This document shows positions 2,956-26,536 of a DNA stretch of 64,000 nucleotides, piece after piece. Every line of letters starts with the position of its first letter. Position 1 is the first letter of the stretch. Both the position numbers and the translations under genes were made by a program. The stretch is from a virus. Taxonomy: Duplodnaviria > Heunggongvirae > Uroviricota > Caudoviricetes. The stretch lies in IMG/VR virus record IMGVR_UViG_3300031555_003801, positions 1 through 64,000 of that record. The stretch is one strand, 5' to 3'. Below the pieces are notes generated by a model. It worked only from the letters and a program-made list of their open reading frames with translations. It did no database searches and was not told where the DNA came from.

Positions 2956-2979
2956 TAAATAAAAAGGAGCTATTTAATT

Positions 2980-6180: not shown

Positions 6181-6209
6181 TTGAAAATTTAAAAAAATTA
6201 TGATATAAT
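6181..6209 (+). promoter_or_regulatory. sigma70-like promoter TTGAAA-N17-TATAAT
   Basis: ttgaaa 6181-6186, tataat 6204-6209 (tgaTATAAT). Lies upstream of hairpin element 'c'. Confidence 0.6.
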
Positions 6210-6263
6210 ATTTATATAATAAAAATTTTTAGGCATATACAGCAAATTGGTTTTTTCTTACAA

Positions 6264-6340: not shown

Positions 6341-6366
6341 TAATAAGAATATGTGTCTAGAATTAT

Positions 6367-6917: not shown

Positions 6918-6926
6918 ATTTATATA

Positions 6927-7000
6927 AAGATGGTTACAGCAAATATTTTGATATAACACATTTAATTAGGGATTAAAAGCGTATTATAATAAACCATCTT
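6927..7000 (+). repeat. Hairpin-flanked element 'd': AAGATGGTT / AACCATCTT with ACAGCAAA (6936-6943)
   Basis: 9-bp inverted repeat. It starts about 10 nt downstream of the -10 element and ends 8 nt before the split tRNA. Confidence 0.5.
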
Positions 7001-7007
7001 GCATTAT

Positions 7008-7711: not shown

Positions 7712-7788
7712 GTCCCTGTAATCCAACAGGTAGAGATAGTGGACTTAAAATCCATCCAGTGTGAGTTCGAATCTCACCAGGGACACCA
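7712..7788 (+). tRNA. tRNA with anticodon TAA (Leu-type anticodon) but class I architecture (5-nt variable loop)
   Basis: Acceptor gtccctg/cagggac is perfect. Anticodon arm gtgga-ctTAAaa-tccat. T arm gtgag-ttcgaat-ctcac. Discriminator A. CCA present. Confidence 0.5.
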
Positions 7789-7793: not shown

Positions 7794-7870
7794 GTCCCAT
7801 TAGCCCAATTGGCAGAGGCGTCTGACTTAGGATCAGATCAGTGCAGGTTCGAATCCTGTGTGGGGCACCA
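7794..7870 (+). tRNA. tRNA with anticodon TAG (Leu CUN-type anticodon) but class I architecture
   Basis: Acceptor gtcccat/gtggggc (2 G-U). Anticodon arm tctga-ctTAGga-tcaga is perfect. T arm gcagg-ttcgaat-cctgt. CCA present. Confidence 0.55.
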
Positions 7871-7971: not shown

Positions 7972-8098
7972 GTTTTGATTTATTCTGTTACTTAAATTGA
8001 GCGGATGTAGCCGAATTGGTATAGATACATGATTCTAGAGATTTGAATTATTTTACCTATAAATAATAATATTATTAGTTTAAAAGAATATAAATAAA

Positions 8099-8947
8099 AT
8101 GGAATTAATTGATTTTACAAAAGAGATAAATAATGCTTAGTTATTTGTAGGTTCTGGTAAAAAGAAAAAATTATTAATTAATTATAACAATGAATAGTAT
8201 ATAATTAAATTTGCTAAAAATATATGTACAAATAATCAAGGTATTATTACAAATTAGAGAGGCTTTTCAGAATATTTAGCTTGTCAAATTTATCAAAATG
8301 CAGAATTTTTTGTTTAGGAAACTTTATTAGGTTATTATAAAAATAAAAATAATATTTTAACTGCTTGTAAACTTGCAAATAATAAAATTACAGATTTTAG
8401 TTTTTTTATGGAAAAATATGATTATAAAGTAAGTAATAAATTAAATGATATTTTATTAGTTTGTAAATATATTAATATAGAAGAATACTTTTGGGATATG
8501 TTTATTATAGATGCTTTTATTGGTAATACAGATCGTAATACTGGTAATTGGGGATTATTTTATAATGAAAAATTAGATAAAATATTAAGCGTTCCTTTTA
8601 TTTTTGACTGTGAAAATAGTTTTTATCCCAATATGAATGATTATATTTTATAGAATTATTGTCAAAAAGAATTAAAAGAAATAGCTTATAATTATCCAGA
8701 ATCAAAAATAATTTATAATAATAAAAATATAAATTATTTTAATTTTATTTCTTCTTTAGAGAATGAAGATTGTAATGAAGCTTTAAAAAGAATTGTTCCT
8801 AAAATTGATATAGAAAAAATTATTTAGATTATAAATGATCTTCCACTTGAAAAAATATAGAAAAATTTTTTAATAACAATTCTTCAAAAAAGAAAAGAAT
8901 TATTAAATCTTGTTTTAATAAAACTTAATGAAAGAGAAAACCAATGA
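8099..8947 (+). CDS. HipA-like (HipA/CtkA kinase family, divergent catalytic motif) protein with 7 in-frame TAG codons
   Basis: VGSGKKKKL (P-loop-like) and FIIDAFIGNTDRNTGNWG (HipA C-terminal motif region, with D-R-N in place of D-x-H). Same frame as ORF-track fragment 8408..8653. Overlaps the E1 start (ATGA). Confidence 0.5.
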
Positions 8948-9675
8948 TTAGATATAAAGAAAATATTGATGAATTTAATTTAACAGAAAAAATTCAAAAT
9001 CAATTATTAACAAAAAATATTGCAGTAATTGGTTGTGGCGGACAAGGTGGATATACTTTAGAATTTCTTATTCGATTAGGAATTAAATCTATTATTTTTT
9101 GGGATGGAGATTATTTTGAAGAATCTAATCTTAATAGACAAATAGGCTGTTTAATTCCAACGTTACAAAAAAACAAAGCTTTATCTATGAAAGAAAGGCT
9201 TCAACAAATTAATCCAGAAGTAGAATTAATTTGTTGTGATTGGTATTTTGGAGATAAAGAAGATGATAAAGAGAAACTATCTAAAGTAGATTTTATTTTT
9301 GATGCTGCAGATTGTAATTATAATATTTTTAAATTAAGAACAATTTTAAGAGAAGTCATTATTGAATATAATATTCCTATTATTCGTTTCCCTATAAATA
9401 TATTAGGAGGTTATGTTCATATTGAAACTATGAAAGATTTAAGCCATTTTGATTTTATTACGCATAGATTAATTTATCAAAATAAAAATGAAAAAATTTT
9501 TCCAGAAGCAGTAAGTCAACCCGCTTATAAATGTGCAATTATTGCGGGCGAAGCTGTAAATCAAATGGTTCAATATTTTTCTAATTGTAGATATGCGGCT
9601 ATTGATACAACTTTAAATATTGATCTTTATCATCATAAATATGTTGAAGAAGATAGATTTGGAATTATTCCATAA
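8944..9675 (+). CDS. ThiF/MoeB/E1-like adenylyltransferase
   Basis: Rossmann motif IAVIGCGGQGGY. Signature FEESNLNRQ. 243 aa. Confidence 0.75.
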   Translation: MIRYKENIDEFNLTEKIQNQLLTKNIAVIGCGGQGGYTLEFLIRLGIKSIIFWDGDYFEESNLNRQIGCLIPTLQKNKALSMKERLQQINPEVELICCDWYFGDKEDDKEKLSKVDFIFDAADCNYNIFKLRTILREVIIEYNIPIIRFPINILGGYVHIETMKDLSHFDFITHRLIYQNKNEKIFPEAVSQPAYKCAIIAGEAVNQMVQYFSNCRYAAIDTTLNIDLYHHKYVEEDRFGIIP

Positions 9676-9678
9676 TTT

Positions 9679-9759
9679 GGGGACATAGCTCAGTTGGTGA
9701 GAGCGCAGAGCTTATACCTCTGGAATCTGTCGAAGGTTCAAGTCCTTCTGTCCCTACCA
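9679..9759 (+). tRNA. tRNA-Ile (anticodon TAT), 9-nt variable loop
   Basis: Acceptor ggggaca/tgtccct. D arm gctc-agttggtga-gagc. Anticodon arm cagag-ctTATac-ctctg. T arm gaagg-ttcaagt-ccttc. CCA present. Confidence 0.55.
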
Positions 9760-9766
9760 TTTTTAT

Positions 9767-9839
9767 TAGACACAAACAGCAAAATATTTTATGTCAAGCA
9801 AGGAACTTTTAATTCTTATAATAGCTAATAAAGTGTCTA
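9767..9839 (+). repeat. Hairpin-flanked element 'e': TAGACAC / GTGTCTA with ACAGCAAA (9776-9783)
   Basis: Inverted repeat enclosing ~57 nt with no tRNA. Lies between tRNA-Ile(TAT) and tRNA-Ile(GAT). Confidence 0.5.
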
Positions 9840-9846
9840 GAAAATA

Positions 9847-9923
9847 TTGAGAAGTAGCTCAGATGGTTAGAGCGCAGGTCTGATAAACCTGAGGTCGTGA
9901 GTTCAATTCTCACCTTCTCAACC
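9847..9923 (+). tRNA. tRNA-Ile (anticodon GAT), second copy
   Basis: Acceptor tgagaag/cttctca is perfect. D arm gctc-agatggtta-gagc. Anticodon arm caggt-ctGATaa-acctg. T arm gtgag-ttcaatt-ctcac. CCA present. Confidence 0.75.
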
Positions 9924-9932
9924 ATATTAATA

Positions 9933-10009
9933 TCTGGGTATAGCTCAGTTTGGCAGAGCGCCTGATTTGGGTTCAGGAGGCCGCAAGTTCGAATCTTGCT
10001 ACTCAGACC
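9933..10009 (+). tRNA. tRNA-Pro (anticodon TGG), canonical copy
   Basis: Acceptor ctgggta/tactcag. D arm gctc-agtttggca-gagc. Anticodon arm cctga-ttTGGgt-tcagg. T arm gcaag-ttcgaat-cttgc. CCA present. Confidence 0.75.
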
Positions 10010-10325
10010 AGTCCACCGTTTATGTTTTCCTTTCCTACTTTTGGAACATAAGAATAAGGTGGAGAAAGTAGGGCCGCTTAACCGGTTTATATTTATTAGT
10101 AGGCTGCAGAGCCATGTGTATATAGTATTTTTAAATCTCGCAAAAGTCTCACGATATGTTAAGATATCGCGCTGCTGTAATATGTGAATAATGTGAGTAC
10201 GCAATTTTATAAATGAGTATCGGCCTTGGTGTGGATGTTGATGGAGAGGCGACACGGAGCTCTACTTCGTATCTTTGGTGTCAGAGGTTAATTGTCTAAA
10301 ATCGAGAAAATTTATAAAATTATGT

Positions 10326-10420
10326 GGAGGCGTACCGAAGTGGCTATAACGGCGCAGACTTGAAATCTGTTGTGTCAGCTAGTACCTGACGCGGGGGTTC
10401 AAATCCTCCCGCCTCCGCCA
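10326..10420 (+). tRNA. tRNA-Ser (anticodon TGA), class II
   Basis: Acceptor ggaggcg/cgcctcc is perfect. Anticodon arm gcaga-ctTGAaa-tctgt. Long variable arm. T arm ggggg-ttcaaat-cctcc. CCA present. Confidence 0.75.
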
Positions 10421-10463
10421 ATAACAATGAAGAGTTAAAGGCCTGTAAGGACTTTAACTATTA

Positions 10464-10813
10464 CGGGGCTGAAAATGGTTTCGACAGGGTTGTGAAAAAT
10501 TTTAAATCCGCAGGTGTGATTTACCTTACAAATCAAACTTAAATATAAACGCAAAACCTTATAGATTAGCTGCCTAATTAATTGGTAGGCCTAAACGACA
10601 TGCTTGTTGTTCAGCTAAATGTCTGCGGCTCGAGGAATAGAACAATCACCCCAAAGTTTCTTAATTCTTTTTCAAAAATTAAGTGGTGGATACGATGTTT
10701 GTAAAGTGTCTTTACAAAACCCTGAGTTGGTTATCTCTAAAATAACCTATTGCGTAAGTATGATTTAAAATTAGTAACAGTTTTGGACGCGAGTTCGACT
10801 CTCGCCAGCTCCA
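10464..10813 (+). ncRNA. ssrA: tmRNA (ssrA-like transfer-messenger RNA)
   Basis: 5' end GGGGCTGAAAATGGTTTCGACAGGG (tmRNA tRNA-like domain). 3' end ggacgcgag-ttcgact-ctcgc-cagctcc-a (T arm + acceptor pairing with GGGGCTG). Internal tag-like reading frame GCA AAA CCT TAT AGA TTA GCT GCC TAA (…AKPYRLAA*) ending in the typical LAA + TAA. Confidence 0.65.
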
Positions 10814-10866
10814 GGCATCAAGAGATAAACCTTCACGTGGTGATGCTGATTTCGACAGATTATCTC
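10812..10866 (+). repeat. Copy 2 of the ~55-nt structured element (immediately 3' of the tmRNA)
   Basis: catcaagagataaaccttcacgtggtgatGctgatttcgacagattatctcaaaaa. One substitution relative to copy 1. Confidence 0.5.
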
Positions 10867-10898
10867 AAAAATTGTTCTCATTTTCTTTATTTCTATTA

Positions 10899-11052
10899 AG
10901 ACTCAATACAGCAAAATTATAAAACTTGTTTAGGCAATATATAAACTCTACAGAAAATGTGCTGGTGACACGCTTTCACTGTTGTTATTATTTGATAGTA
11001 AGAAAAACAGGGATAATAACGCTAATAAAAACTGTTAAATTCTTTTGAGTCT
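10899..11052 (+). repeat. Hairpin-flanked element 'f': AGACTCAA / TTGAGTCT enclosing ~140 nt, with ACAGCAAA at 10908-10915
   Basis: 8-bp inverted repeat. The insert has no ORF. The suppressor tRNA follows directly. Confidence 0.45.
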
Positions 11053-11061
11053 AGTATTAAA

Positions 11062-11151
11062 GCTCCGTAGTCTAATGGTAAAACGCCGGACTCTAAATCC
11101 GTTATACTCTCTGAAAGGGTAATCTGGGTTCGAATCCCAGCGGGGCCGCCA
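11062..11151 (+). tRNA. Amber suppressor tRNA (anticodon CTA, reads UAG), class II with long variable arm
   Basis: Anticodon arm (c)cgga-ctCTAaa-tccg(t) with U33 and A37. Variable stem tactct/agggta. T arm ctggg-ttcgaat-cccag. Acceptor agctccg/cggggcc (1 A-C at 1-72) + g + CCA. The D arm is irregular. Confidence 0.6.
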
Positions 11152-11160
11152 ATTTTTAAT

Positions 11161-11193
11161 AGCCAGTTTATATTTTTATAAACTGGCTTTTTG
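11161..11193 (+). terminator. Rho-independent terminator closing the tRNA array
   Basis: agccagtttata-ttttt-ataaactggct followed by tttt. Confidence 0.7.
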
Positions 11194-11201
11194 TTATTTA
11201 T

Positions 11202-11230
11202 TTGAAAAAAATTAAAAAATATGATATAAT
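11202..11230 (+). promoter_or_regulatory. sigma70-like promoter TTGAAA-N17-TATAAT
   Basis: ttgaaa 11202-11207, tataat 11225-11230 (tgaTATAAT). Confidence 0.6.
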
Positions 11231-11264
11231 AAACTATGATAAAAAATAAAAAAGGATAAAATAT

Positions 11265-12230
11265 ATGGAATTAATTGACTTTACGAAAGCAATAAATAAT
11301 GCTTAGTTATTTAAACCTACTGGTAACAATAAAAAAAAATTAAAAATTATTTATAATAATGAAGAATATATAATAAAAACTTCAAAATATACAATTGAAC
11401 AAGATAAAGAAAATAAATATAAAATGATTGAATTGTATAATACAATATCGGAATATTTAGGTTGTAAAATTTATGATAGTTTAAATATACCTGCACAAAA
11501 AACTTTATTAGGATATTATTAGTATAAAAATAAAAAACAAATGATAATTGCTTGTAAAAATTTTAATATTGATGATAGTTTTCTTCCTTTTGGTATATTC
11601 TTTAATAAAGAACGACAACAAGATAATAATAAATTGCAATCTTTAGAAATAAAAAATATTATAAAAAAAATTGAAGAACAAAATATTTATGATTCTCAAA
11701 AAATAAAAAAACGTTTTTGGGATATGTTTATTATTGATGCTTTTATTGATAATCCCGATAGAACTTCTGGAAACTGGGGTTTTATAAAAGATAAAAAAAC
11801 AAATACAATCATAAATTTTTGTCCAATTTTTGATTGTGAATAGAACATATTTTTAGAAATACTATTAAAAAATAAAAAACAATTATTAAATAATTAGAAT
11901 AAAATAAATTTTTTAGCTATATCGCCTTTTAAAAAATCTTATTTAATTTATGATAATAAAGTTATAAATTATTTTAATTTTATTTCCTCTTTAGAAAATG
12001 AAGATTGTAATGAAGCTTTAAAAAGAATTGTTCCTAAAATTGATATGGAAAAAATTATTTAGATTATAAATGATCTTCCACTTGAAGAATTCCAAAAAAA
12101 TAATTTAATAATAGTATTAAAAAAAAGAAAAGAATTATTATTAGATTTTCCTTTATTTCTCTTACAAAATATAGATAAAAGAGAAAAATACGAAAAAAAA
12201 ATAGAAAGGATAATATATGATAAATTATAA
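11265..12230 (+). CDS. HipA-like paralog with 5 in-frame TAG codons
   Basis: MELIDFTKAINNA*... FIIDAFIDNPDRTSGNWG. Same frame as ORF-track fragment 11541..11843. Its C-terminal ~125 bp is a near-exact direct repeat of the 3' end of 8099..8947. Stop TAA at 12228-12230 overlaps the ycaO start. Confidence 0.5.
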
Positions 12231-14007
12231 AAATCATTATAAAGAACGAAAACCAGAGGAAACAATAAAAATTATAGAAAACTTTTTTTTAAATCTCAAT
12301 ATGAAAATTAAAAGAAATGAAGTTATGATTAGTGAAATAAATACTTATTCAATACAAATAATATTATTTGATAAAAATGATTTTTTAATTTTATACGCTA
12401 ATGGTAAAGGTGAAACAGAAGAATTTGCAATTGCCTCTGCTTATGGCGAATTATATGAACGTTTCTGTAATATGAGATTTATTATGAAAGATGGTATTGC
12501 TCAAAATTTATTTTTACAAAAAAGAAAACAAAAATATAATTATTATTATCATCCAGAAGAAAAAGAATTTTCTTTAATAGAATTAATTAATGCCGATCAA
12601 AATTTTCATAATTTTTTCTTAGGAGATTTTTCTGAAAAAGATTCTGATATTATTAATTTTTATAATACACTTTTTAATAATAAATTTATTGCTGCGCCTT
12701 ATCAAGATTTATTAGATTCAAATAAACAATATTTTTATAACCCATATTTAATGACAGTGTTAAGAGGATCTGGCGGAATGGCTGCTGGAAATACATTAGA
12801 AGAAGCTTTAAATCAAGGCATTTCAGAACTTTACGAACATTATATTACAGATAAATTTCGTTATTTAAAAAAAGATTTTGATTTTCATTTTATAGATATT
12901 TCAACTATTAAAAACCAAAAATTAAAAGAAAAGATAAAATTATTAACAGATAATGAAAACTATGAATATTATTTAATTGATTTTTCTTATAATTTTAATG
13001 TACCTGTTTTATTATCTATTTTAATTGATAAAACTTTACAAAGATTTTTTATTAATTTTGGTTCTTTTCCTATTTTTGATATTGCTTTAGAAAGAACATT
13101 AACAGAATTATATCAAGGAGTTGTTTCTTTTAAAGAAGAAGAACAATCAAATAATATTATTGTTCCTTATAAAAGTGGAGTAACTATTATAGAAGCTTTA
13201 GACGCTACAGCAAATGTCACTAATTCTCTTTGTTTAAATGAAAGTTTTTTATTAAGTGAAAAAAAATTTTATTCCCCTAATTCAAAAATATTTTTATTTA
13301 ATCAGGATAAAAATTATTCAAATGAAGATATATTAAATTATTATAAAAAATTATCTTCTTATTTAAATATTAATTTTTGTTATTTAGATGTATCTCAATC
13401 TTCTGAAATGCATGCTATACAAATTTATAGTATAAATTTACCTCATTTCTCGTTACCTTTGGAAGCAAAAAAAATGCTTTACAAAAAACAACAATTAAAT
13501 GTTTATAAATTATTATCATATTTTATTCAGTTAGAAAATAAATGGCTAAATAATCATATATGGGATAATTTATTATGGGAAAAAATAATAATTTTATATA
13601 ATCAATTTACTATTGAAGATATTTTATTGTTTAATATTAGTGCCTCTATATTTTGTTTTAATTTTAGTAAAACTAATAATCTTTTATCATTAATTGAACA
13701 ATTTATAAAAATGGATTCAAATATTTATATGATTGAAGAACAAATTATTGCTATGTCTAATAAATCAATTCTTTCAGAAGATATTAAAAAATTCTTAACT
13801 CAATATAGGTATATTGTTAATAATGATTATCTTCCAAGTGAAAAAACTAAAATATTAAAAACTTTAATACCAGAATTTTCACAAGATGAAACATTATTTA
13901 AAAATATTATTACTCCAGAATATTTCTTACAAGTAATAATGGAAAAATTATATGAATATTATCATAGTGAAAAATATTCTGATTATCTTGATGCTTTAGT
14001 TGGATAA
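12217..14007 (+). CDS. YcaO-domain protein
   Basis: ANGKGETEEFAIASAYGELYERF matches the YcaO ATP-binding/cyclodehydratase signature. 596 aa. No TAG codons. Confidence 0.7.
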   Translation: MINYKNHYKERKPEETIKIIENFFLNLNMKIKRNEVMISEINTYSIQIILFDKNDFLILYANGKGETEEFAIASAYGELYERFCNMRFIMKDGIAQNLFLQKRKQKYNYYYHPEEKEFSLIELINADQNFHNFFLGDFSEKDSDIINFYNTLFNNKFIAAPYQDLLDSNKQYFYNPYLMTVLRGSGGMAAGNTLEEALNQGISELYEHYITDKFRYLKKDFDFHFIDISTIKNQKLKEKIKLLTDNENYEYYLIDFSYNFNVPVLLSILIDKTLQRFFINFGSFPIFDIALERTLTELYQGVVSFKEEEQSNNIIVPYKSGVTIIEALDATANVTNSLCLNESFLLSEKKFYSPNSKIFLFNQDKNYSNEDILNYYKKLSSYLNINFCYLDVSQSSEMHAIQIYSINLPHFSLPLEAKKMLYKKQQLNVYKLLSYFIQLENKWLNNHIWDNLLWEKIIILYNQFTIEDILLFNISASIFCFNFSKTNNLLSLIEQFIKMDSNIYMIEEQIIAMSNKSILSEDIKKFLTQYRYIVNNDYLPSEKTKILKTLIPEFSQDETLFKNIITPEYFLQVIMEKLYEYYHSEKYSDYLDALVG

Positions 14008-14017
14008 AATAAAATAA

Positions 14018-14047
14018 AAACGAGATTATTAAAAATAATCTCGTTTT
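14018..14047 (+). terminator. Rho-independent terminator
   Basis: aaacgagattatt-aaaaa-taatctcgttt + T-run. Confidence 0.7.
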
Positions 14048-14058: not shown

Positions 14059-14087
14059 TTGAAAATTTTCAAAAAAAATGTTATAAT
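14059..14087 (+). promoter_or_regulatory. sigma70-like promoter TTGAAA-N17-TATAAT
   Basis: ttgaaa 14059-14064, tataat 14082-14087 (tgtTATAAT). Confidence 0.6.
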
Positions 14088-14153
14088 ATATTATAAAGTT
14101 AAAAAATAATCCTCTTGTCCAAGAGGAAACAATGAGAAAAAGGAGTAAAGAGA

Positions 14154-15710
14154 ATGAATAAGTTTTTAAATGGATTAACTGATGCAACTAACTTCACTTA
14201 CACTGAAAATGGTGCTATTACCCATAAAACTACTAAGTCTGCTCTGTTAGATATGTTCGCACTTGGTGGAGCATATAGAACTAGAAGTGACGCAGAAGTA
14301 ATCACCTTATTTAAGAACGCATATGAGGAAAATCCTGTTTATGCGTTAAAGTGCCTGTTCTATCTGCGCGACGTGCGTGGCGGACAGGGTGAAAGAAGAT
14401 TTTTCAAAACTGCAATGAAGTGGTTTGCTAATGCTGATGTAGAAGCAGCAAGAAGAAATTTCAAGCATATTCCAGAGTTTGGTAGATGGGATGATTTATA
14501 TCTTTTCATTAATACGCCTCTTGAAAATGAAATGTTCCAGTTTATGAAGGAACAGTTAGCACTCGATATGCAGTGCAAAACACCTTCTCTGTTAGCAAAG
14601 TGGTTAAAGTCTGAAAATACATCTTCTATGGAATCCAGATATCTGGCTAAGAAGACTCGTCAGTATTTTGGCATGACCGCAAAGCAGTATAGAAAGACAT
14701 TATCTATCCTCCGTGAAAGAATTAATGTTCTTGAAAGATTAATGTCTGCAGGTAAGTGGGATGAAATCGAGTTCGATAAGATTCCTTCTAAGGCAGGTTT
14801 AATTTATAAGAATGCTTTTGCTAGACACGATATCGAAAGAATGAAGACTGAAAAGGCTGTAGTATCTTATGCGGATTTCGCTAAGGATGTAACTACAACT
14901 GTAAATGCTAAGGCATTATATCCATATGAAGTAGTAGCTAAGGCTATTGATTTAATGGGATATAATGGTGGTTGGTTCCGTAGCACTCATGATGTTCCAT
15001 TAGATAATACTGATAGACTTATGATTAATAAATATTGGAATAATCTCGCTGATTATATCCAGGGTGCTAATTTTAATGGAATTGCAGTGGTAGATACTTC
15101 TGGTTCTATGACTGGTTCTTTTGCTAGTGCACCAATTAATGTAGCTGTTTCTCTTGGCATGTATTGTGCTGAAAAAAATAATGGTCCATTCAAAGATCAC
15201 TTCATTACATTTGAATCTAATCCTCATTTAATTAAGGTTGAAGGCGTAGACTTTTGCGAAAAGGTTTATAATATTACTGGCGCAGACTGGGGTGGTTCTA
15301 CAAATATTGAAGCAGTGTTTGACTTATTATTAGATACTGCTATCAGAAATAATTGTTCTCAGGATGAAATTCCACAGAATGTAATTGTTATTTCTGATAT
15401 GGAGTTTAACTCTTGTGTAACTTTTAATAGCTTACTTGCAAGAAGATATTATAATGAACCTATGTTTAATACTGAAACTTTATTCGAAACCATGGAACGC
15501 AAATGGAATAGAGCAGGATATCAGATGCCTGCAATTACATTCTGGAATGTTCAGGCAAGACAGAATAATATTCCAATGAAGACTGAAGGTAGAGTAAATT
15601 ATGTATCTGGTATGTCTCCAGTAATCTATGAACAGGTTATGAAAGGTTTAAGTGCTTACGATCTGATGATGGATAAGTTAGATAATGAAAGATATAGCGT
15701 AATTTGCTAA
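14154..15710 (+). CDS. vWA (MIDAS) domain protein with large N-terminal helical domain (Ro60/TROVE-like architecture possible)
   Basis: MIDAS motif VVDTSGSMTG. 518 aa. Clearly higher GC and different codon usage than flanking phage genes. Confidence 0.55.
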   Translation: MNKFLNGLTDATNFTYTENGAITHKTTKSALLDMFALGGAYRTRSDAEVITLFKNAYEENPVYALKCLFYLRDVRGGQGERRFFKTAMKWFANADVEAARRNFKHIPEFGRWDDLYLFINTPLENEMFQFMKEQLALDMQCKTPSLLAKWLKSENTSSMESRYLAKKTRQYFGMTAKQYRKTLSILRERINVLERLMSAGKWDEIEFDKIPSKAGLIYKNAFARHDIERMKTEKAVVSYADFAKDVTTTVNAKALYPYEVVAKAIDLMGYNGGWFRSTHDVPLDNTDRLMINKYWNNLADYIQGANFNGIAVVDTSGSMTGSFASAPINVAVSLGMYCAEKNNGPFKDHFITFESNPHLIKVEGVDFCEKVYNITGADWGGSTNIEAVFDLLLDTAIRNNCSQDEIPQNVIVISDMEFNSCVTFNSLLARRYYNEPMFNTETLFETMERKWNRAGYQMPAITFWNVQARQNNIPMKTEGRVNYVSGMSPVIYEQVMKGLSAYDLMMDKLDNERYSVIC

Positions 15711-15723
15711 TTCAAAAAATAAA

Positions 15724-15756
15724 AGGCGGGGTAAAAATACTCCGCCTTTATTTTTT
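15724..15756 (+). terminator. Rho-independent terminator
   Basis: ggcggggtaaaaatactccgcc + ttta-ttttttt. Confidence 0.7.
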
Positions 15757-15947
15757 TCAAAAAATATGATATAATATTATATAATAAAAAATAAGGAGTG
15801 ATATCATGATTCATGTATTAGTGATAGCTTTCTTTTTAAGTTTCTTTATGGCTTGTGTTGTTGAAAATGATGAAATGCCAAAAGAAGAAAAATATCGCTG
15901 GTTCGCAGTTATAGTAGGATTAATAGTTTATGTTTATTTAACTGCAT

Positions 15948-16751
15948 TTGTTTTATAAGAAAGGATTTTTAATGAAATATTTTATTGATTTTGAAGCCAA
16001 TAGTCCGACGAATGAAATCATTGAAATAGGTTGCGTTTCTGAAAAAAATGATTGTTTTAAAATGTATGTTAAACCAACTACACCTATTGACCCATTTATT
16101 ACGGGATTAACGCATATTACAAATAAAATGGTAGAAGATTCTCCTTTAATTGATGAAGCAATTATGATTTTTTATAATTGGCTTATCAATACGCAGGAAC
16201 ATTTTTCTTGGAAAGATACTACTTTTTATTGCTATGGAAATGCGGATCATTCATTTATTCAGGCTTCAGCACAAACTTGCGAAACAACTGATTCTTATAT
16301 GATTCTTGCGGCTATGGCTATGTCTTTGAAAGATTTTACCAAGAAAGTAAATCATTTCTTTAAAGATAGTATTTCTTTAATCCAGGCATTAAATTATTTT
16401 AAAACCTCGGAAACAGCTTGGGAGCAGTGTCATGATGCTCTTGAGGATGCGCTAGCTTTAAAAGAATTATATAAAGTTTTACCAAAAAAATATTCATTAC
16501 CTTGTTCTCCATTTGTTATTAAAACAGAAATGGGTGTTAGAAGAAATAAAAAAGGTTATGGATATACTGATTATATTAGTTTAACAGAAGCTACTGAATG
16601 TGTTGTAAAAGAAATATTAACAACATCACCAAATTCTAATGTTAAATCTGAAAATATTAGAAAAAGAATTATTCATGCTATTAATAAGAAAAGTTCTTAT
16701 ATGGGATATAAATGGAAATATGTAAAGATTGAGAAAGGGGATGAAGAATAA
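15948..16751 (+). CDS. DEDDh-family 3'-5' exonuclease (DnaQ/RNase T-like)
   Basis: Exo I motif FIDFEANSP..EIIEIG. Exo III motif HDALEDALAL. The true start is probably the internal Met at MKYFIDFE. Confidence 0.65.
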   Translation: MFYKKGFLMKYFIDFEANSPTNEIIEIGCVSEKNDCFKMYVKPTTPIDPFITGLTHITNKMVEDSPLIDEAIMIFYNWLINTQEHFSWKDTTFYCYGNADHSFIQASAQTCETTDSYMILAAMAMSLKDFTKKVNHFFKDSISLIQALNYFKTSETAWEQCHDALEDALALKELYKVLPKKYSLPCSPFVIKTEMGVRRNKKGYGYTDYISLTEATECVVKEILTTSPNSNVKSENIRKRIIHAINKKSSYMGYKWKYVKIEKGDEE

Positions 16752-18169
16752 TGTATTAGGCATATGTAACTAAATTAAAAAATGTGCGGCCGCACCCTAA
16801 TGCTGATAGAATGCTTTTAGCAGACTGTTTCGGCAATACTGTTTGTGTAGGCCTTGACGCGCAAGAGGAAGATGTAATTCTCTATTTTCCAACAGATGGA
16901 CAATTATCTAAAGAATATGCGGAAATCAATAATCTTATAAGAATCAAGAATGAAGATGGAACATATTCCGGTGGATATTTAGACCCAGATAAAAGAAACA
17001 TCAAAGCAATTAAATTAAGAGGTGAAAAATCTGATGGTTTAGTAATGCCACTAGAATCCCTTTCTTCTTTTGGAGATATTTCTACTTTAAATATTGGAAA
17101 TACAATTAATGTCTTTAATGGACATGAAATTTGTAAAAAGTATATTCCAAGAGAAAATCCAATGAAGGTGCGCGCTGGCGGTAATAAGACCCGCAAGACC
17201 AAGCGCCTAATTGCTCCTTTATTCAAAGAACATGCTGATACTGAACAATTAGCATATAATCTTGATGCTTTCAAAGCGGGAGATGAAATTGAAATCACAT
17301 TAAAGATGCATGGAACTTCTCAAAGAACTGCTTACTTACCAAAATTAATTGGTTATAAAAGATCTATTTTAGATAGACTCTTAAAGAGAGAAGGAACTCC
17401 AATCTATGATTGGGGCTATGTGTCTGGAACTCGTAGAACTGTTGTAGATGATTTTGAAAATAGAACAACTTCTTTCTATGGTAGTGATGCATTTAGAGAA
17501 CCGCATGCAAAAATGTTTGAAGGAAAGCTTTATAAGGGTGAAACTGTTTATTATGAAGTTGTTGGTTTTACCGATAATGGAACTCCTATTATGGGTTCTT
17601 GTGATAATAGAAAAACTCAAGATAAAGAGTTTATTAAGAAATATGGTGAAGTGACTACTTTCTCTTATGGTTGTGACTGTGCGGAACAAGCATGGAGAGA
17701 AAATAGAGGACAAGATCCAGACAAACCTCAGTCTGACATTTATGTATATCGAATGACAATGACTAATGAAGATGGTTATGTAATGGAATTAACTCCTGAT
17801 TATATGAGATATAGATGCGAGCAGATGGGTGTAAAGACAGTGCCTGTTATGTGGAAAGGATACATTCCTTATACAGTAGATGACATTGATTCTACTATTC
17901 CTGGTCACAGAATTATACTTAGAGAAGGGGAAAATGCTGGAGACTGGGTTAAGAGTGTAGCAGAACAGTATTACGATGGACCTGACCCAATTGGTAGAAC
18001 CCATGTGCGGGAAGGTGTAGTTGTAAGAATTATAAATAGACCAAAATTTGCAGCATATAAGCATAAAAACTTTAGCTTCAAAGTTCTCGAAGGAATTGTC
18101 AAAGCGGATGCATTAATGCCAGATATGGAAGAAGCACAGGAGACTATTGATGAAAGTTCAGAGATTTGA
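16751..18169 (+). CDS. ATP-dependent RNA ligase (Rnl2/Rnl5-like, nucleotidyltransferase motif I KMHGTS) with N-terminal OB-like domain; codon 3 is TAG
   Basis: ATG TAT TAG at 16751-16759 joins onto ORF-track frame 16784..18169. LKMHGTSQR resembles the KxHG(T/S)N motif I of the Rnl2 family. GC-richer than the surroundings. Confidence 0.55.
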
Positions 18170-18554
18170 AAATGGTCGTAGCTTTCGGGAGGTTTATACT
18201 GAACCTTCCGAAGTTATAGAGTTTTTAGAATATAATATGAATTATCTTATTGATAAATGGAAAATAAAAAGTGAAAAACTTGAAGAAGAAAATCAATTAT
18301 TAAGAGATAATGAATATGTAAAAAAAGTGGAAGAAGAAAATGTAAAATTAAGAAAAAAGCTTAATACAGCATTTATAATTAGTTCCGCAAATAGAGAAAA
18401 AAATAAAAAATGGATTGATGAACACTTAAAACAAAAACATCCAGATAGAAAATGGCTTGATTATCATTATGAATTTTATCCCATTCCTCTTGGAGTTTTT
18501 GGAAGTTGTGTTTGTGATTATTGTAAAGAAAAAAATGATTTAGGCGAGGTATAA
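18147..18554 (+). CDS. Hypothetical protein
   Basis: ORF with coiled-coil-like middle. No recognisable motif. Confidence 0.35.
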   Translation: MMKVQRFENGRSFREVYTEPSEVIEFLEYNMNYLIDKWKIKSEKLEEENQLLRDNEYVKKVEEENVKLRKKLNTAFIISSANREKNKKWIDEHLKQKHPDRKWLDYHYEFYPIPLGVFGSCVCDYCKEKNDLGEV

Positions 18555-20989: not shown

Positions 20990-22177
20990 ATGTCAAATTG
21001 TAATGAAAATAATTGTTCTTCTTTAAAAGAATTAATTACAAATTATAAATATAATAATTTATTACCAATTCATGGGATTTTATCTGTTACAAATAGATGT
21101 AATTTAAATTGTTCTTATTGTTTTCATAAACAAAATGAAATAGATATAAATTTTTATACTGCGGATATGGCTATAAAATATATTATTTCAAATGCGACTA
21201 TTCAAAAAGTAAAACCTAATATTAGCTTTTTTGGAGGAGAACCTTTATTATTATTTGATGAAATAATAAAACCATTAATTAATAAATATAAAGATTCTAT
21301 AAATTGGACTATTACAACAAATGGAACTTTATTAACAGAAAATATTATAGATTTTTTTACTGATAATAATGTTTCTATTTTATTATCTATGGATGGATGT
21401 AAAAAAGTTCAAGACAATCAAAGGCCTATGAAAAATGGAGAAAGTTGTTTTGATAAATTAAAAAATATCATTCCATATTTATTATTAAAGCAACCTAATA
21501 CTATTTTTAGGTCAACAATCTCAAGATATTCTTTAGATTTTTTAGAAGAAAATATTAATACGGCTAAAAATTTTGGTTTTAAATATATTACATTAGTGCC
21601 TAATTTATTTGAAGAATGGCAACCAGAAGATTTTTATAAGTGGGAACAATTTATAGATAATGAATCTATTAAAATTATGCAAAAAATTTCTTGGGAAGAA
21701 CCTTTTGATTACATATTAACAAATTTAAAAGATGGTATTCAAGGAATTTATAAATCTAATCAAAATAATTATTTAAAAAATCCTATTGATGCTTGTGGAA
21801 TGGGCTTTAAAGGTATTGGAATTTCTCCAAATGGAAAATTACATCCTTGTCAAGAAGAAAACGGTGTAGATGATATAAATATTATAGGTGATATTTATTA
21901 CGGAATTGATAAAAAATTACATGAACAATACTGTAAAGATATTTATAATAAATGGTTAGAATATATAGAAAAAATAGATAATATAATAGGAAGTTCTAAT
22001 TTTAAATTATTTTATGGAAATCATGTTTGTAATACAAGATTAAAAGATGGATTTGCTTTTAATAATACACAAACATATTATTTAAGAGCTTTACATAGAG
22101 CTTGTTCAAGATTATATTATAATTTTAATTTATCTTTAAATCCAAGAGCACAATATTTTTTAGGAGAAATTGAATGA
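20990..22177 (+). CDS. Radical SAM enzyme with C-terminal SPASM/twitch-like Cys cluster
   Basis: CNLNCSYC (CX3CX2C) near the N-terminus. C-terminal CGMGF...HPCQEENG cysteines. Confidence 0.8.
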   Translation: MSNCNENNCSSLKELITNYKYNNLLPIHGILSVTNRCNLNCSYCFHKQNEIDINFYTADMAIKYIISNATIQKVKPNISFFGGEPLLLFDEIIKPLINKYKDSINWTITTNGTLLTENIIDFFTDNNVSILLSMDGCKKVQDNQRPMKNGESCFDKLKNIIPYLLLKQPNTIFRSTISRYSLDFLEENINTAKNFGFKYITLVPNLFEEWQPEDFYKWEQFIDNESIKIMQKISWEEPFDYILTNLKDGIQGIYKSNQNNYLKNPIDACGMGFKGIGISPNGKLHPCQEENGVDDINIIGDIYYGIDKKLHEQYCKDIYNKWLEYIEKIDNIIGSSNFKLFYGNHVCNTRLKDGFAFNNTQTYYLRALHRACSRLYYNFNLSLNPRAQYFLGEIE

Positions 22178-23373
22178 TTACTTTAAACTTACATATAAAT
22201 TATAATTGTCCTTTATCTTGCCGATATTGTTGTCAAAGAAATGATATAGCTTTATTAGATTCTGAATTTACTGCTCAAGAAATGATTGATGTAGTACAAA
22301 ATTTTATGGATTCTAAAAATGTTGATAAATGTAAAATAAATATATCTGGAGGAGAACCTCTTTTAAAATATAAAGATATTCAACAATTAATGAAACATTT
22401 TCCAAATAATACTTATGAAATTTCTACTTCTGGATATTTATTAACTGCTGAAAAAGCTAAATTCTTTTCTTATTATGGAGTTAGTTATATTTTATCTGTT
22501 GATGGGGGAGAAAAAGTAACTAATTATTTAAGACCTCTAGCAAATGGAGAACAAGGATATTTTCAAAAATTAAAAGAAAATATACCACATATTTTATATT
22601 ATGCTCCAAGAACAAGAGCAAAATTAATTGTTCCTAAAAATTTAATTTCAGAAATTTTTAACACTTATTTAGAATTAGAAAGACTTGGTTTTCAAGAAAT
22701 TTTTATAACACCTAATGTATATGAAAATGAGGTTGATACACATCATCCAGAATTAGAGACAGGTCATTGGGAAGAAGAAGATTGGAATAAATTTAGAACT
22801 GAAATTTTTAAAATTATGAAAGAAATAGAATTAGGTATTTCTTTAAATCGAAAAAGATGTTTAATTACTAATATTATTACTATTTTAGTAAAAATGTTAA
22901 TTCCAGAAGAAGGAAAATTTAATAGTGCTAAATTAATTTGTGAAGTATTAGATTTTAAAGGCGGAACAAGTCCTGCTGGTGGGCAAGTTCCTATTTTAAA
23001 TACAGATATTTCTTTATGTATGAGAAATATAAATGAAGAAATTGATACTCAAGAAAAACTGTTAAATAAAATAAAACAAGATTATTTAGCTCTTAATGGC
23101 GTTTGCGAGCTAGATGAAAAATGTCCATATCAATCTACTTGTATGTATAGTGTTTGTTTATCTGAAAATTTAAAAAGTAAACATAAAAATATTTTTACTC
23201 CAACATTATTTCAGTGTAATACTCAAAAGATTTATCATGATGCAGCAATGTTATTTTTAAATCTTTTAAATGATAAAAATAATGAAGTTATAAAATATTA
23301 TTGGAATGAAATTTATTATAGAAAAGAGGTGTCTATGAATAATGCCTTATTATCCAGCTGGAACGGTGAATGA
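22174..23373 (+). CDS. Second radical SAM/SPASM-like enzyme
   Basis: CPLSCRYC (CX3CX2C). C-terminal CELDEKCPYQSTCMYSVC Cys cluster. Overlaps the upstream gene by 4 nt. Confidence 0.75.
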   Translation: MITLNLHINYNCPLSCRYCCQRNDIALLDSEFTAQEMIDVVQNFMDSKNVDKCKINISGGEPLLKYKDIQQLMKHFPNNTYEISTSGYLLTAEKAKFFSYYGVSYILSVDGGEKVTNYLRPLANGEQGYFQKLKENIPHILYYAPRTRAKLIVPKNLISEIFNTYLELERLGFQEIFITPNVYENEVDTHHPELETGHWEEEDWNKFRTEIFKIMKEIELGISLNRKRCLITNIITILVKMLIPEEGKFNSAKLICEVLDFKGGTSPAGGQVPILNTDISLCMRNINEEIDTQEKLLNKIKQDYLALNGVCELDEKCPYQSTCMYSVCLSENLKSKHKNIFTPTLFQCNTQKIYHDAAMLFLNLLNDKNNEVIKYYWNEIYYRKEVSMNNALLSSWNGE

Positions 23374-24070: not shown

Positions 24071-24130
24071 TAAAAAATATGTTATAATATATTATAATAA
24101 AAATTAAGAAATAAATAAGGAGTTGATACT

Positions 24131-24850
24131 ATGGCTACTTACATTTGCAGTGATTTACATGGCAATTATAATGTATGGTATGAAATCAAAAAATTCTTAA
24201 AAAAAGATGATAAATTAATTTGCCTTGGTGATGTAATTGATAGAGGTTCCGCAGGATATTCCATTTTAGTAGAAATGCTTGGAGATTCAAGAGTAGAATT
24301 ATTTATGGGTAATCATGAAGATATGATGATTCGTAGTTGTGATTTACATCTTAAAGGTGCTAATACAAATACTTCTTCCACTATGGCAAATTGGATTTAT
24401 GGCAATGGTGGAAATTGTACTTTTGAAGATTGGTGTCTCGATCCTGGTCGTATGGAAATATTAGAACAAATGCGCAATCTACCTTTAAAAAGATTACATA
24501 TTAATGAAAAAGGTTTAAAAATTATTTTATGTCATGCAGGTTGTTGTTCAGAAGATTTTTATAATGATAATATTGAAGATTTTGATTTGTTATGGGATCG
24601 AAATCATTTTCATTTTCCTTGGCCAAAAGATGAAGAATTTGAAGACTGGATGGTAGTTCATGGACATACTCCAATAGCAAAGATGATGAATTGGCCAGAT
24701 TATGTGCCGACCAAAGCTCTATGGTATGAAGGTGGGCATAAAATTGATATTGATTGTTTAACAGCATTTACCAATTTTACTATTCTTCTTAATATTGATA
24801 CTTTTGAAGAACATATTATTGGAGAACCTATTGAGGAGGTGCTTTGGTAA
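24131..24850 (+). CDS. Calcineurin-like metallophosphoesterase / Ser-Thr protein phosphatase (lambda PPase/ApaH-like)
   Basis: Motifs CSDLHGN, GDVIDRG, GNHE. Confidence 0.75.
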   Translation: MATYICSDLHGNYNVWYEIKKFLKKDDKLICLGDVIDRGSAGYSILVEMLGDSRVELFMGNHEDMMIRSCDLHLKGANTNTSSTMANWIYGNGGNCTFEDWCLDPGRMEILEQMRNLPLKRLHINEKGLKIILCHAGCCSEDFYNDNIEDFDLLWDRNHFHFPWPKDEEFEDWMVVHGHTPIAKMMNWPDYVPTKALWYEGGHKIDIDCLTAFTNFTILLNIDTFEEHIIGEPIEEVLW

Positions 24851-25140: not shown

Positions 25141-25164
25141 TTTTGCGAGTCAAAAATATGATGT

Positions 25165-25674
25165 TTGGTTTTGTCCAAAATGCGGAACGGGATGGGTGAT
25201 ATAATGGCAACAAGTTTAATTATGATGGTTGGCGCGCCTGGAAGTGGTAAAACTACTTGGATTAAAAATGCTAAAGAATTTAATTTAGAAGGAAATCATA
25301 TTTCTCGAGATGTAATTAGATTTTCTTTAGTAAAAGAAGACGAAGAATATTTTAGTCGAGAAAATGAAGTATTTGATAAATTTATTGAAGAAATTCAAAA
25401 GTCTATTGATGCGGGACAGCGCACTTATGTAGATGCTACTAATCTCAATGAAAGATCAAGAAATAAAGTTCTTGATAGATTAAATCTTGAAAATGTAGAT
25501 TTATATGCTTTAGTTTTTAATATTCCTCTTGAAGAATGTTTGCGACGCAATGCTCTGCGGACCGGACGTGAAGTAGTGCCAGAAAGCGCTCTGACGCGCA
25601 TGCATAAATCTATGACAAATCCGCGAGGAGACCAGAAATATAAATATAAGGAGGTATATGTAATTTATGCCTAA
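25165..25674 (+). CDS. Polynucleotide 5'-kinase (T4 Pnk kinase-domain-like P-loop kinase)
   Basis: MMVGAPGSGKTTW (Walker A), ISRDVIR, DATNLNERSR, FNIPLEECLRRNALR, all similar to the T4 Pnk kinase domain. The start is probably the ATG at 25204. Confidence 0.65.
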   Translation: MVLSKMRNGMGDIMATSLIMMVGAPGSGKTTWIKNAKEFNLEGNHISRDVIRFSLVKEDEEYFSRENEVFDKFIEEIQKSIDAGQRTYVDATNLNERSRNKVLDRLNLENVDLYALVFNIPLEECLRRNALRTGREVVPESALTRMHKSMTNPRGDQKYKYKEVYVIYA

Positions 25675-25909: not shown

Positions 25910-25912
25910 GGA

Positions 25913-26536
25913 GTGATACTAATGGGGAAAATTTTCCTTACTAGTGACTGTCATTTCAACCATGTTAATATTATTAAATATGAGTCTGAAACACGCGGCA
26001 TGTTTGCTAGTCCCGCAGAAATGAATGAAAAAATTATTGAAAATTGGAATAGTGTAGTTAGTCCAGAAGACACAGTATATGTTTTAGGGGATTTATGTAT
26101 GGGAAAGCTAGATGATATTCCCTTAATTATTGAAAGACTAAATGGCACTATTGTTCTCGTTCGCGGTAACCACGATACAGAGAACAGATTACGTCTTTAT
26201 CGTTCTCTTGGAATTGAAGTAAAAGATATTGCTTACCTTGAATATAAAGGCAGATTTTTTGTAATGTGTCATTTCCCTATGACTAATCCAGAATTTATTA
26301 AATTAGTTACAAAAGATAATAGTGAAGTAGTTATGCTTTATGGACATATTCACTCTAATGCGCCAAAGGGTTATGTAGATGGAACTTATCATGTAGGTAT
26401 GGATACAAATGATTTAACCCCAATTTCAATTCATCAAATTTGGAAAGAATGTTGGCCAGAAAATATGAATGAACAAAATAAAGCATATAAAGCAAAGTAT
26501 GAATGTGGAGGTTGTCCAGAAGAAGATAATTGTTAG
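25913..26536 (+). CDS. Metallophosphoesterase (calcineurin-like; candidate 2',3'-cyclic phosphodiesterase/3'-phosphatase partner of the kinase)
   Basis: TSDCHFNH, GDLCMG, GNHD, GHIH motifs. Confidence 0.7.
   Translation: MILMGKIFLTSDCHFNHVNIIKYESETRGMFASPAEMNEKIIENWNSVVSPEDTVYVLGDLCMGKLDDIPLIIERLNGTIVLVRGNHDTENRLRLYRSLGIEVKDIAYLEYKGRFFVMCHFPMTNPEFIKLVTKDNSEVVMLYGHIHSNAPKGYVDGTYHVGMDTNDLTPISIHQIWKECWPENMNEQNKAYKAKYECGGCPEEDNC

Follow-up and report, generated by a model that had tools for sequence, protein, structure and literature searches.

The locus

The stretch of DNA analysed here, referred to throughout as the window, consists of 64,000 nucleotides (positions 1 to 64,000) of the IMG/VR virus record IMGVR_UViG_3300031555_003801, from a large (~188-kb) TAG-recoding gut phage of the Caudoviricetes. 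It is AT-rich (30.3% GC) and its open reading frames (ORFs) of 100 codons or more lie nearly all on the + strand. Between 1.8 and 11.2 kb it carries 23 tRNA genes together with a transfer-messenger RNA (tmRNA), a suppressor tRNA(CUA) and a full-length ROOL RNA. An island follows this array, all on the + strand, composed of a gene for a 518-residue Ro60-like protein of Pfam family DUF2828 (14154–15710), a 50-residue hydrophobic ORF (ORF50; 15806–15958), a DEDDh (DnaQ/RNase T superfamily) 3′-5′ exonuclease of 259 residues (15972–16751) and a predicted Rnl5-type ATP-dependent RNA ligase of 472 residues (16751–18169). The array itself contains two RNA elements, A (6229–6360) and B (2473–2592), which resemble the Y RNAs of Ro ribonucleoproteins (RNPs). 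Our interpretation, which we regard as probable rather than secure, is that the island combines a Ro-like/Y-like RNP unit with an exonuclease–ligase RNA-repair unit.

An initial annotation had treated the DUF2828, exonuclease and ligase genes as a trio. The transcription signals show two units instead, since terminators flank DUF2828, each group has its own promoter-like site and the exonuclease and ligase genes are coupled. A terminator at 14017–14047 precedes a sigma-70-like promoter for DUF2828 (14059–14087, +; TTGAAA-17-TATAAT, TG extended, 11/12 matches), and an intrinsic terminator with a 12-bp stem, six GC pairs and a T run (15722–15749, +) separates the gene from what follows. A further promoter-like site at 15756–15785 precedes ORF50, exonuclease and ligase, with the exonuclease stop and ligase start overlapping as TAATG, indicative of translational coupling. 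An extended promoter-like motif, TTGAAAAT ... TGnTATAATATATTATAATAAAAAATAA, recurs at 14059–14100, 15756–15800, 6190–6225 and 2626–2680, thus fronting DUF2828, the exonuclease–ligase unit and RNA genes; one copy lies immediately ahead of element A, whose transcribed strand starts at 6229.

Gene order in 80 related viral loci agrees with this division. The ligase lies 6–11 kb downstream of DUF2828 in most relatives, and the exonuclease is directly 5′ of the ligase in 11 of 33 loci and within ~1.4 kb in about half. The compact order DUF2828–ORF50–exonuclease–ligase is maintained in close relatives, so that the trio is contiguous in a sub-lineage only and can be ruled out as a conserved operon. 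The position relative to the tRNAs is more constant: they lie upstream of DUF2828 in nearly all related loci with upstream sequence and downstream in only 4/80, and the DUF2828 gene abuts a tRNA array in seven phage lineages.

Base composition had also been taken to suggest acquisition of all three genes. DUF2828 (35.3% GC, 89th percentile) and the ligase (35.6%, 93rd percentile) are indeed modestly GC-richer than the window's ORFs, but the exonuclease, at 28.7%, falls below their median of 30.7%. The apparent contrast stems from the genes just upstream of DUF2828 (HipA-like and YcaO), which have a GC content of only 17.6–20.1%. Since identical genes in identical order are found in dozens of related phages, there is no sign of recent acquisition, and the GC percentiles rule out an argument for it on compositional grounds.

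A Ro60-like protein of the DUF2828 family

The product of 14154–15710 is a full-length member of its family, exceeding both curated Pfam cut-offs: DUF2828, covering the helical N-terminal part, is matched with an e-value of 1.8e-30 (106.6 bits; cut-off 29) and DUF7788, covering the vWA domain, with one of 1.5e-40 (139.2 bits; cut-off 27.1). Residues 1–515 match phrog_850, ‘RNA-binding protein’, at 3.9e-132. The MIDAS (metal ion-dependent adhesion site) is intact, its residues D314-x-S316-x-S318, T383 and D415 showing no variation across 29 homologues. In the predicted structure a helical-repeat part is followed by a C-terminal vWA domain with the MIDAS, just as in Ro60/Rsr, and the fold search ranks Ro60 structures highest.

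The proposal that this vWA protein resembles Ro60/Rsr therefore holds at the level of fold but not of sequence. Comparison with TROVE/Ro60, which the initial annotation had put forward as a check, gave Ro60 by structure prediction and fold search, while the Pfam TROVE family was not matched (at E ≤ 0.01 with the full protein or at E ≤ 10 with residues 1–315), and phmmer and profile searches of PDB sequences retrieved no Ro60. With a TROVE signal absent at the sequence level, the protein is best described as Ro60-like in fold rather than as a demonstrable TROVE member; unlike Ro60/Rsr, it is filed under DUF2828/DUF7788 and matches none of the solved Ro60 chains. By analogy with Ro60, it might form a Ro-type ring binding RNA 3′ ends in its cavity, with the Y RNA outside.

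The family is large, with 696 phage records spread over many lineages whose hosts are Actinobacteria, Firmicutes and Proteobacteria, and it has eukaryotic members too. Mycobacteriophage homologues already carry the annotation ‘Ro-like RNA binding protein’. A literature search on ‘DUF2828’ yielded only unrelated papers.

Y-RNA-like elements in the tRNA array

Both RNA elements lie on the + strand and share one fold, in which the ends pair in a stem of 13–18 bp with the sequence ACAGCAA next to it. In element B (2473–2592) a 14-bp terminal stem and ACAGCAA are followed by a tetraloop hairpin, a T-arm, a closed 7-bp acceptor hairpin whose 3′ strand is followed by GCCA, and a D-arm. Element A (6229–6360) has the same succession of terminal stem, ACAGCAA, T-arm, closed acceptor hairpin and D-arm, with an anticodon-arm-like hairpin bearing a Cys-like 7-nt loop, CUGCAAA, ahead of the T-arm. 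A covariance model of these Y-like RNAs, here called R1, scores element B at 104 bits and element A at 93 bits.

The fold is well supported by covariation. Across 13 homologues, from related phages and Bacillus phage PBC2, all four helices are supported, with 96.3% of cells paired and compensatory changes at 18 of 23 pairs; in 70 distinct sequences the figures rise to 97.6% and 22 of 23, compared with 33–44% paired in a slid-partner control. NCCA is encoded right after the acceptor 3′ strand in 17/70 family members. In loci retrieved by sequence pattern (see below) conservation of ACAGCAA, T-loop and D-arm is by construction, but the motif is also present in copies found without the pattern.

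The terminal stem plus ACAGCAA seems to be a module in its own right, and we refer to it as the clamp. It surrounds an ordinary tRNA-Ile(GAU) at 1836–1954 (+; R1 39.5 bits) and small payloads in three short RNAs, at 3772–3837 (+; with ACAGCGA, 24.2 bits), 6926–7001 (+; ACAGCAA, 29.5 bits) and 9766–9840 (+; ACAGCAA, 30.7 bits). Short clamp matches are numerous in related loci as well, at 26–39 bits, and are individually uncertain.

Of known RNAs, the closest comparison is offered by YrlA, whose type of Y RNA accompanies Ro60/Rsr in bacteria, mycobacteriophages and Thermus phage phiLo. It shares the paired 5′ and 3′ ends and an interior that mimics tRNA T-arm, acceptor and D-arm in permuted order, and M. 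smegmatis YrlA shares in addition the 7-bp acceptor stem and the NCCA found in some phage copies. The Rfam YrlA model (RF02553), at a relaxed threshold, matches element A at 35.1 bits (6264–6363) and element B at 24.7 bits (2488–2594), and an RNA from Mycobacterium phage Moostard at 37.9 bits. The differences are equally plain. Both window elements score far below the YrlA gathering score of 69, and an Rfam scan at gathering threshold reported no Y RNA. The phage RNAs often have an extra hairpin at the anticodon-arm position. Above all, YrlA carries a Ro-binding motif, GNCGAAN0-1G, on its 5′ strand (PMC4201824), which the phage elements lack, having ACAGCAA directly after the 5′ stem strand in its stead. 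Their placement differs too from that in Ro/Y loci, the RNA being embedded in a tRNA array, kilobases from the DUF2828 gene, in tRNA-rich phages.

Linkage of the RNA class to DUF2828

The association of these RNAs with DUF2828 was assessed in two ways. With R1, a match of 70.9 bits was found in Moostard ~100 nt 3′ of the gene for its Ro-like DUF2828 protein, and others near DUF2828 in a Salmonella Felixounavirus (56.4 bits), Enterococcus phage VRE9_3 (54.9 bits) and Bacillus phage PBC2. Tandem tRNAs can mimic the permuted order: among 100 control loci searched with R1 none exceeded 48.5 bits, and since controls reach that value, R1 matches of 26–48 bits were treated as unreliable. The second approach used the RNA only. 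An exact pattern, ACAGCAA followed by T-loop and D-arm in permuted order, retrieved 120 viral loci of 1–15 kb. A DUF2828 homologue is present in 52 of them, on the same strand in 52/52 and mostly 77–900 nt from the RNA. By comparison, 120 control loci of similar lengths, picked solely by two adjacent T-loops and with a median of nine tRNAs, contain DUF2828 in three instances (Fisher p 2.5e-15). Loci with both RNA and DUF2828 include at least 12 without any tRNA. Genetically, this RNA class thus stands to DUF2828 as YrlA does to Rsr, and a structured RNA encoded nearby on the same strand is a further likeness to Ro60/Rsr. The clamp RNAs may well be bound by the DUF2828 protein.

The same linkage bears on whether DUF2828 could be a vWA/MIDAS protein with a role unrelated to RNA, such as adhesion or counter-defence, its similarity to Ro60 being one of shared architecture. 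The lack of TROVE signal would fit, as would the eukaryotic family members, the unrelated literature mentions and a structure model of moderate confidence (predicted local distance difference test, pLDDT, of 71). Such a role would leave unexplained the tight same-strand linkage to a structured RNA class that is absent from controls, and we think it very unlikely.

A different view of the RNAs had been taken in the initial annotation, which saw permuted and split tRNA genes adjoining the ligase gene and requiring an RNA-joining activity for their maturation. Permuted tRNA genes are known in Cyanidioschyzon merolae and split tRNAs in Nanoarchaeum. The phage elements are like them in having the T-arm and acceptor 3′ strand before the acceptor 5′ strand and D-arm, and in forming a helix from the transcript ends; they differ in that no bulge-helix-bulge or splicing endonuclease is evident, in the lack of an anticodon loop from many copies and in being linked to a Ro-like gene rather than to a missing tRNA species.

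Were they true permuted or split tRNA genes, transcripts would be cut and rejoined (circularised) by the Rnl ligase encoded in the same island, a scheme for which the permuted arms, the anticodon-like loop of element A, the NCCA of some family members and the terminal stem joining 5′ and 3′ ends all speak. The elements do exist, but rather than adjoining the ligase gene they lie 10–14 kb upstream of it. Element B and its relatives, with a 3–4-nt loop at the anticodon-loop position, are unable to decode, and for element A an ordinary tRNA-Cys(GCA) is already present at 5785–5858. The clamp wraps an ordinary tRNA and tiny payloads besides, many loci with the RNA have no tRNAs, and the RNA tracks DUF2828, with a ligase homologue in only 4 of the 120 RNA loci. 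Rnl5 enzymes, moreover, seal duplex nicks and not free ends (PMC4408790). Finally, M. smegmatis YrlA, of the same layout, is cut by RNase P and has CCA added, after which both halves stay on Rsr with no ligation (PMC4201824), so that the permuted or split appearance is explained without any joining step. Given the frequent absence of an anticodon loop, the tracking of DUF2828 and the preference of Rnl5 for nicks, ligase-dependent maturation of permuted tRNAs appears highly improbable. The elements are better read as YrlA-like mimics and, in view of the 52/120 against 3/120 loci holding DUF2828, most likely as partners of the DUF2828 protein rather than as substrates of the ligase.

The exonuclease–ligase unit

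The initial annotation of the ligase as an Rnl2/Rnl5-family enzyme with the motif KMHGTS is borne out, and it can be placed more specifically as Rnl5-like. The ORF matches Pfam RNA_ligase over residues 179–445, phrog_968 ‘RNA ligase’ at 5.4e-68, a PHA02142 OB domain weakly, and NCBIfam TIGR02306 (RNA_lig_DRB0094, of D. radiodurans) at 1.6e-14, residues 4–193 aligning with model positions 6–177, that is, the N-domain and motif I. The last match, at 53.6 bits, is below the equivalog cut-off of 151.15, marking the protein as a divergent, longer relative. Motif I, K185-M-H-G-T-S, is unchanged in 23 homologues and likewise in a set of 30. PDB sequence searches with the ligase, by single sequence and by profile, gave nothing significant (T4 Rnl2, E 0.19). 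In Foldseek, NgrRnl of Naegleria gruberi ranks first (E 1.5e-8, whole-length) and T4 Rnl2 second; the model is of low confidence (pLDDT 56) and for this reason the ranking was used and the template modelling (TM) scores were not. Foldseek ranking and the TIGR02306 match over N-domain and motif I together place the enzyme in or next to the Rnl5 clade.

Rnl5 enzymes consist of an N-terminal domain and a nucleotidyltransferase domain with no C-terminal appendage, and seal nicks with a 3′-OH RNA strand (PMC4408790). The phage ligase resembles DraRnl and NgrRnl in its N-terminal OB-like and nucleotidyltransferase domains, its motif I lysine and the absence of a C-terminal domain. It differs in being ~130 residues longer, with an acidic tail and variable insertions (alignment columns about 325–350 and 410–430), and in having KMHG where NgrRnl has KLDG. 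A 135-residue ORF without family match (18147–18554, +) overlaps its 3′ end and is kept after the ligase in close relatives.

The ligase gene begins ATG-TAT-TAG (16751–16759), with TAG as codon 3 (16757–16759), as had been noted at the outset. A standard ORF finder chooses a GTG at 16784, but an AGGGG ribosome site accompanies the ATG at 16751 and none accompanies the GTG. The N-terminus MY[K/N/Q/T]AY[V/I]T.LKN, which lies before the GTG, is kept in homologues, the TAG position itself being variable (K/N/Q/T), and ATG-TAT-TAG recurs in a relative with an 82% identical ligase. On these grounds a full-length ligase including the first strand of the N-domain needs TAG read-through, and the suppressor tRNA(CUA) at 11061–11151 (+) is required for reading the codon. 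This tRNA is 91 nt long; its extended variable arm, together with G73 and an A1:C72 mismatch, makes it class II-like (Ser-type features) and not Gln-like. In-frame TAG occurs in 18 of the 57 long + strand ORFs of the window, and TAG is therefore a sense codon in part of the genome.

The ORF preceding the ligase was correctly assigned as a DEDDh exonuclease, matching RNase_T at 1.5e-15 (58.5 bits; cut-off 24). The motifs DxE, D and H-x4-D can be read directly in its sequence as FIDFEAN, YGNADHSF and CHDALEDA. A C-terminal extension of ~88 residues (16488–16751), matching no Pfam family, ends in SSYMGYKWKYV, kept as Y-x-x-[YF]-x-W in relatives. By eye, this tail resembles those of the GIY-YIG homing endonucleases of the window (2959–3597 and 62773–63381), which end in AGGFKWKFI; the second of these directly follows an nrdD-like ORF (61380–62672). 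ORF50, first gene of the unit, is kept in close relatives.

These data raise the question of whether the exonuclease–ligase pair acts on DNA or RNA–DNA hybrids in replication or repair, for instance by trimming and sealing RNA-primed or ribonucleotide-patched nicks, its location then reflecting early-region synteny. In PDB and NCBIfam the exonuclease is closest to DnaQ/PolC-type DNA proofreaders, KapD and Pol III epsilon, all generic matches, and it also matches phrog_192, ‘DNA polymerase exonuclease subunit’; the homing-endonuclease-like tail and the contiguity of the trio in one sub-lineage only point the same way. Rnl5 seals RNA-OH/pDNA nicks, and loss of DraRnl radiosensitises D. radiodurans (PMC4408790, PMC5397189). 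On the other side, separate replication genes (gyrase B, a RecJ-like gene and a helicase region) are found elsewhere in the window, and the company kept by the ligase family is that of RNA repair, as described next. We consider a DNA-directed role unlikely, while regarding it as a serious rival.

A plausible RNA-repair context

Genes that could supply end-healing functions lie downstream of the ligase. They encode a calcineurin/lambda-phosphatase-type metallophosphoesterase (24119–24850, +; Metallophos 8e-15), a candidate for 3′-end healing; a P-loop kinase (25162–25674, +; AAA_33 1e-20), a candidate 5′-OH polynucleotide kinase whose best NCBIfam match is TIGR04075, the bacterial Pnkp kinase domain (6.4e-18); and a second, YfcE/PdeM-like metallophosphoesterase with one in-frame TAG (25910–26575, +). 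From these assignments it is plausible that the three genes round off a set for heal-and-seal RNA repair.

Relatives of the ligase and of DUF2828 are found in comparable settings. Ligase homologues adjoin Pnkp in mycobacteriophage 244 and again in Bacillus phage vB_BcoS-136, which belong to independent lineages. A second metagenomic lineage (loci L161 and L202), whose DUF2828 is 37–39% identical to the window protein, has, in this order, a Y-like RNA, DUF2828, a NifS-like gene, an Rnl5-like ligase, a 277-residue ORF and a P-loop kinase–HD fusion. The NifS-like gene, for a cysteine-desulfurase-like class-V aminotransferase (L161 7823–8953, L202 2586–3749), occupies the slot of the exonuclease in the window. 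In Listeria phage LP-124 DUF2828 comes after the tRNA array, and the next 7 kb encode RtcB and an RNA ligase along with a HAD protein and a phosphoesterase.

Known systems provide precedents. RNA-repair sets of jumbo phages bring together tRNAs and ATP-dependent ligases with kinases and phosphoesterases, and now and then include a ROT/TROVE protein (PMC7824862), and the island with its surroundings shares with these and other heal-and-seal sets (T4 Pnkp with Rnl1/Rnl2; Pnkp-Hen1) the tRNAs, ATP-dependent RNA ligase, Pnkp-type kinase and phosphoesterases along with a Ro-like protein. It differs from them in having the healing functions in separate genes 6–8 kb from the ligase, and from the T4 and bacterial sets in that the ligase is of Rnl5 type, not Rnl1 or RtcB, and is coupled to a DEDDh exonuclease. 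Set beside the rsr-yrlA-rtcB-rtcA operon, the difference is an ATP-dependent Rnl5-type ligase by DUF2828; RtcB and RtcA were not among the ORFs scanned at 7–30 kb, nor were Hen1 and RtcR among the ORFs examined. The analogy to bacterial loci combining Ro, Y RNA and an RNA ligase, drawn before this analysis, nevertheless proved apt in pointing to RNA repair.

A question of a different kind is whether the RNP and the exonuclease–ligase pair work together. The Ro-like/Y-like RNP alone might target host machinery, for example damping PNPase or other exoribonucleases, in functional separation from the other unit. In Thermus phage phiLo, Ro60, the adjacent Yrl RNAs and host PNPase form a complex which lowers PNPase activity (PMC12135203). 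DUF2828 is monocistronic in the window, it is distant from the ligase in most relatives, and many loci with DUF2828 and the RNA have no ligase nearby, weak evidence inasmuch as the stretches retrieved were short. Yet RNA ligases or end-healing enzymes occur within a few kb of DUF2828 in three independent contexts, namely the Listeria phage, the L161/L202 lineage and the sub-lineage of our window, and this recurrent proximity suggests cooperation between the two units. Functional separation we therefore hold to be rather unlikely, though it deserves somewhat more weight than the other alternatives.

Several further observations weigh against the proposed combination of a Ro-like/Y-like RNP with RNA repair, in addition to the absent TROVE signal, the departures from YrlA in score and motif, the DNA-type matches of the exonuclease and its inconstant position beside the ligase. 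The RNAs of the window lie 8–12 kb upstream of the DUF2828 gene, and in Listeria and Campylobacter phages a search of the 8 kb around DUF2828 gave no confident R1 match. Roles other than end healing are conceivable for the kinase and phosphoesterases, which lie 6–8 kb beyond the ligase. The structure model of the ligase is poor, with TM scores of about 0.2–0.27. Lastly, Rnl5 enzymes favour nicked duplexes and their physiological substrates are not known (PMC4408790, PMC5397189).

In the scheme that we infer for the RNP and repair units, as regards RNA–protein binding, substrates, cooperation and timing, the Ro-like protein would bind the stem and ACAGCAA of the Y-like RNAs, the clamp being the putative protein-binding module. 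By analogy with Ro60-YrlA, the RNP might then engage RNA ends that are structured or misfolded, or it might act on a 3′-5′ exoribonuclease by tethering or modulating it. Acceptor hairpins with NCCA would probably be opened by RNase P, the Y-like RNAs being made without ligation. The ligase could seal 3′-OH/5′-PO4 breaks in base-paired RNA, most plausibly in tRNAs or further translation RNAs that host nucleases have cut. Before sealing, the exonuclease would trim the ends and/or the Pnkp-type kinase and metallophosphoesterases would heal them. Full-length ligase would be made only when the suppressor tRNA(CUA) reads the TAG at codon 3.

Genome setting

Several features of the surrounding DNA are worth recording. 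In-frame TAGs are concentrated in certain genes (116–1712, 8084–8947, 11250–12230, 30214–31560, 42204–43160) and absent from many others. TAG-rich examples include two glycosyltransferase-like ORFs, two HipA-like paralogues (5–7 TAGs, 15–18% GC), a PIN/PhoH-like ORF (seven TAGs) and a GIY-YIG-fused ORF (seven TAGs). The tmRNA (10465–10813), with the tag peptide AKPYRLAA, has a tRNA-Ser and the suppressor tRNA as neighbours. The pair of tRNAs bearing Leu anticodons, UAA and UAG, at 7712–7788 and 7794–7870, are 77 nt each and are without the long variable arm usual for bacterial tRNA-Leu, and a tRNA at 3599–3671, matched in Rfam at 46.9 bits, is absent from ARAGORN output.

The ROOL RNA (RF03087, 337 bits; 5099–5707, +) lies within the array, its 3′ end exactly at the start of a tRNA-Gly. 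Of the 80 related loci, 11 gave a ROOL match in nhmmer searches with this copy as query, and in the locus from Listeria phage LP-124 (L088) a ROOL-like RNA, at 87 bits below the gathering score, lies at 5018–5569, ~1 kb upstream of DUF2828. No protein partner of ROOL is known (PMC12286853). The ornate RNAs ROOL and GOLLD have a genomic niche in common with the Y-like RNAs, the phage tRNA island, ROOL itself being a distinct RNA of far greater size.

Between the tRNAs and the Ro-like gene (8084–14007) are found two HipA_C-like kinase paralogues, a ThiF-family protein (8932–9675) and a YcaO protein (12217–14007), and two radical-SAM proteins are encoded at 20990–23373. The HipA_C, ThiF, YcaO and radical-SAM genes could constitute a peptide- or RNA-modification set.

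Implications

Neither the annotation of DUF2828 as Ro-like nor the concept of RNA repair by phages is new; what is new in the trio is the arrangement, its parts being of known kinds. A literature search produced no account of the DUF2828-linked ACAGCAA-clamp RNA class or of its placement in tRNA arrays, although an earlier review of RNA repair could hold one. We suggest, tentatively and as something close to an even possibility, that DUF2828 and the ACAGCAA-clamped permuted-tRNA-like RNAs form a widespread and apparently undescribed phage RNP of Ro/Y type, embedded in tRNA arrays and repair sets. Its Ro-like protein may handle tRNA-island transcripts, possibly those of ROOL/GOLLD neighbours, along with the Rnl5-type ligase and end-healing enzymes. 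That the clamp also tags ordinary pre-tRNAs and mini-RNAs is the reason for supposing that the protein may be a dedicated handler of such transcripts.

Ro60-Y RNA particles are found from bacteria to humans and their functions are debated, while viromes of the gut and the environment commonly contain phages with large tRNA arrays. If DUF2828 represents a second, sequence-divergent Ro lineage that has a Y-like RNA class of its own, some 700 phage genes at present annotated as ‘hypothetical’ or ‘RNA-binding protein’ would gain a testable partner and a binding motif. Many tRNAs of phage islands that are called ‘pseudo’ or ‘permuted’ would likewise be explained. The ligase of the window illustrates in a specific case how a recoded stop, here at codon 3, can gate an enzyme gene, and Rnl5 ligases more generally would gain a genetic setting, consisting of a Ro-like protein, a Pnkp-type kinase, phosphoesterases and tRNAs, in which to search for their substrates.

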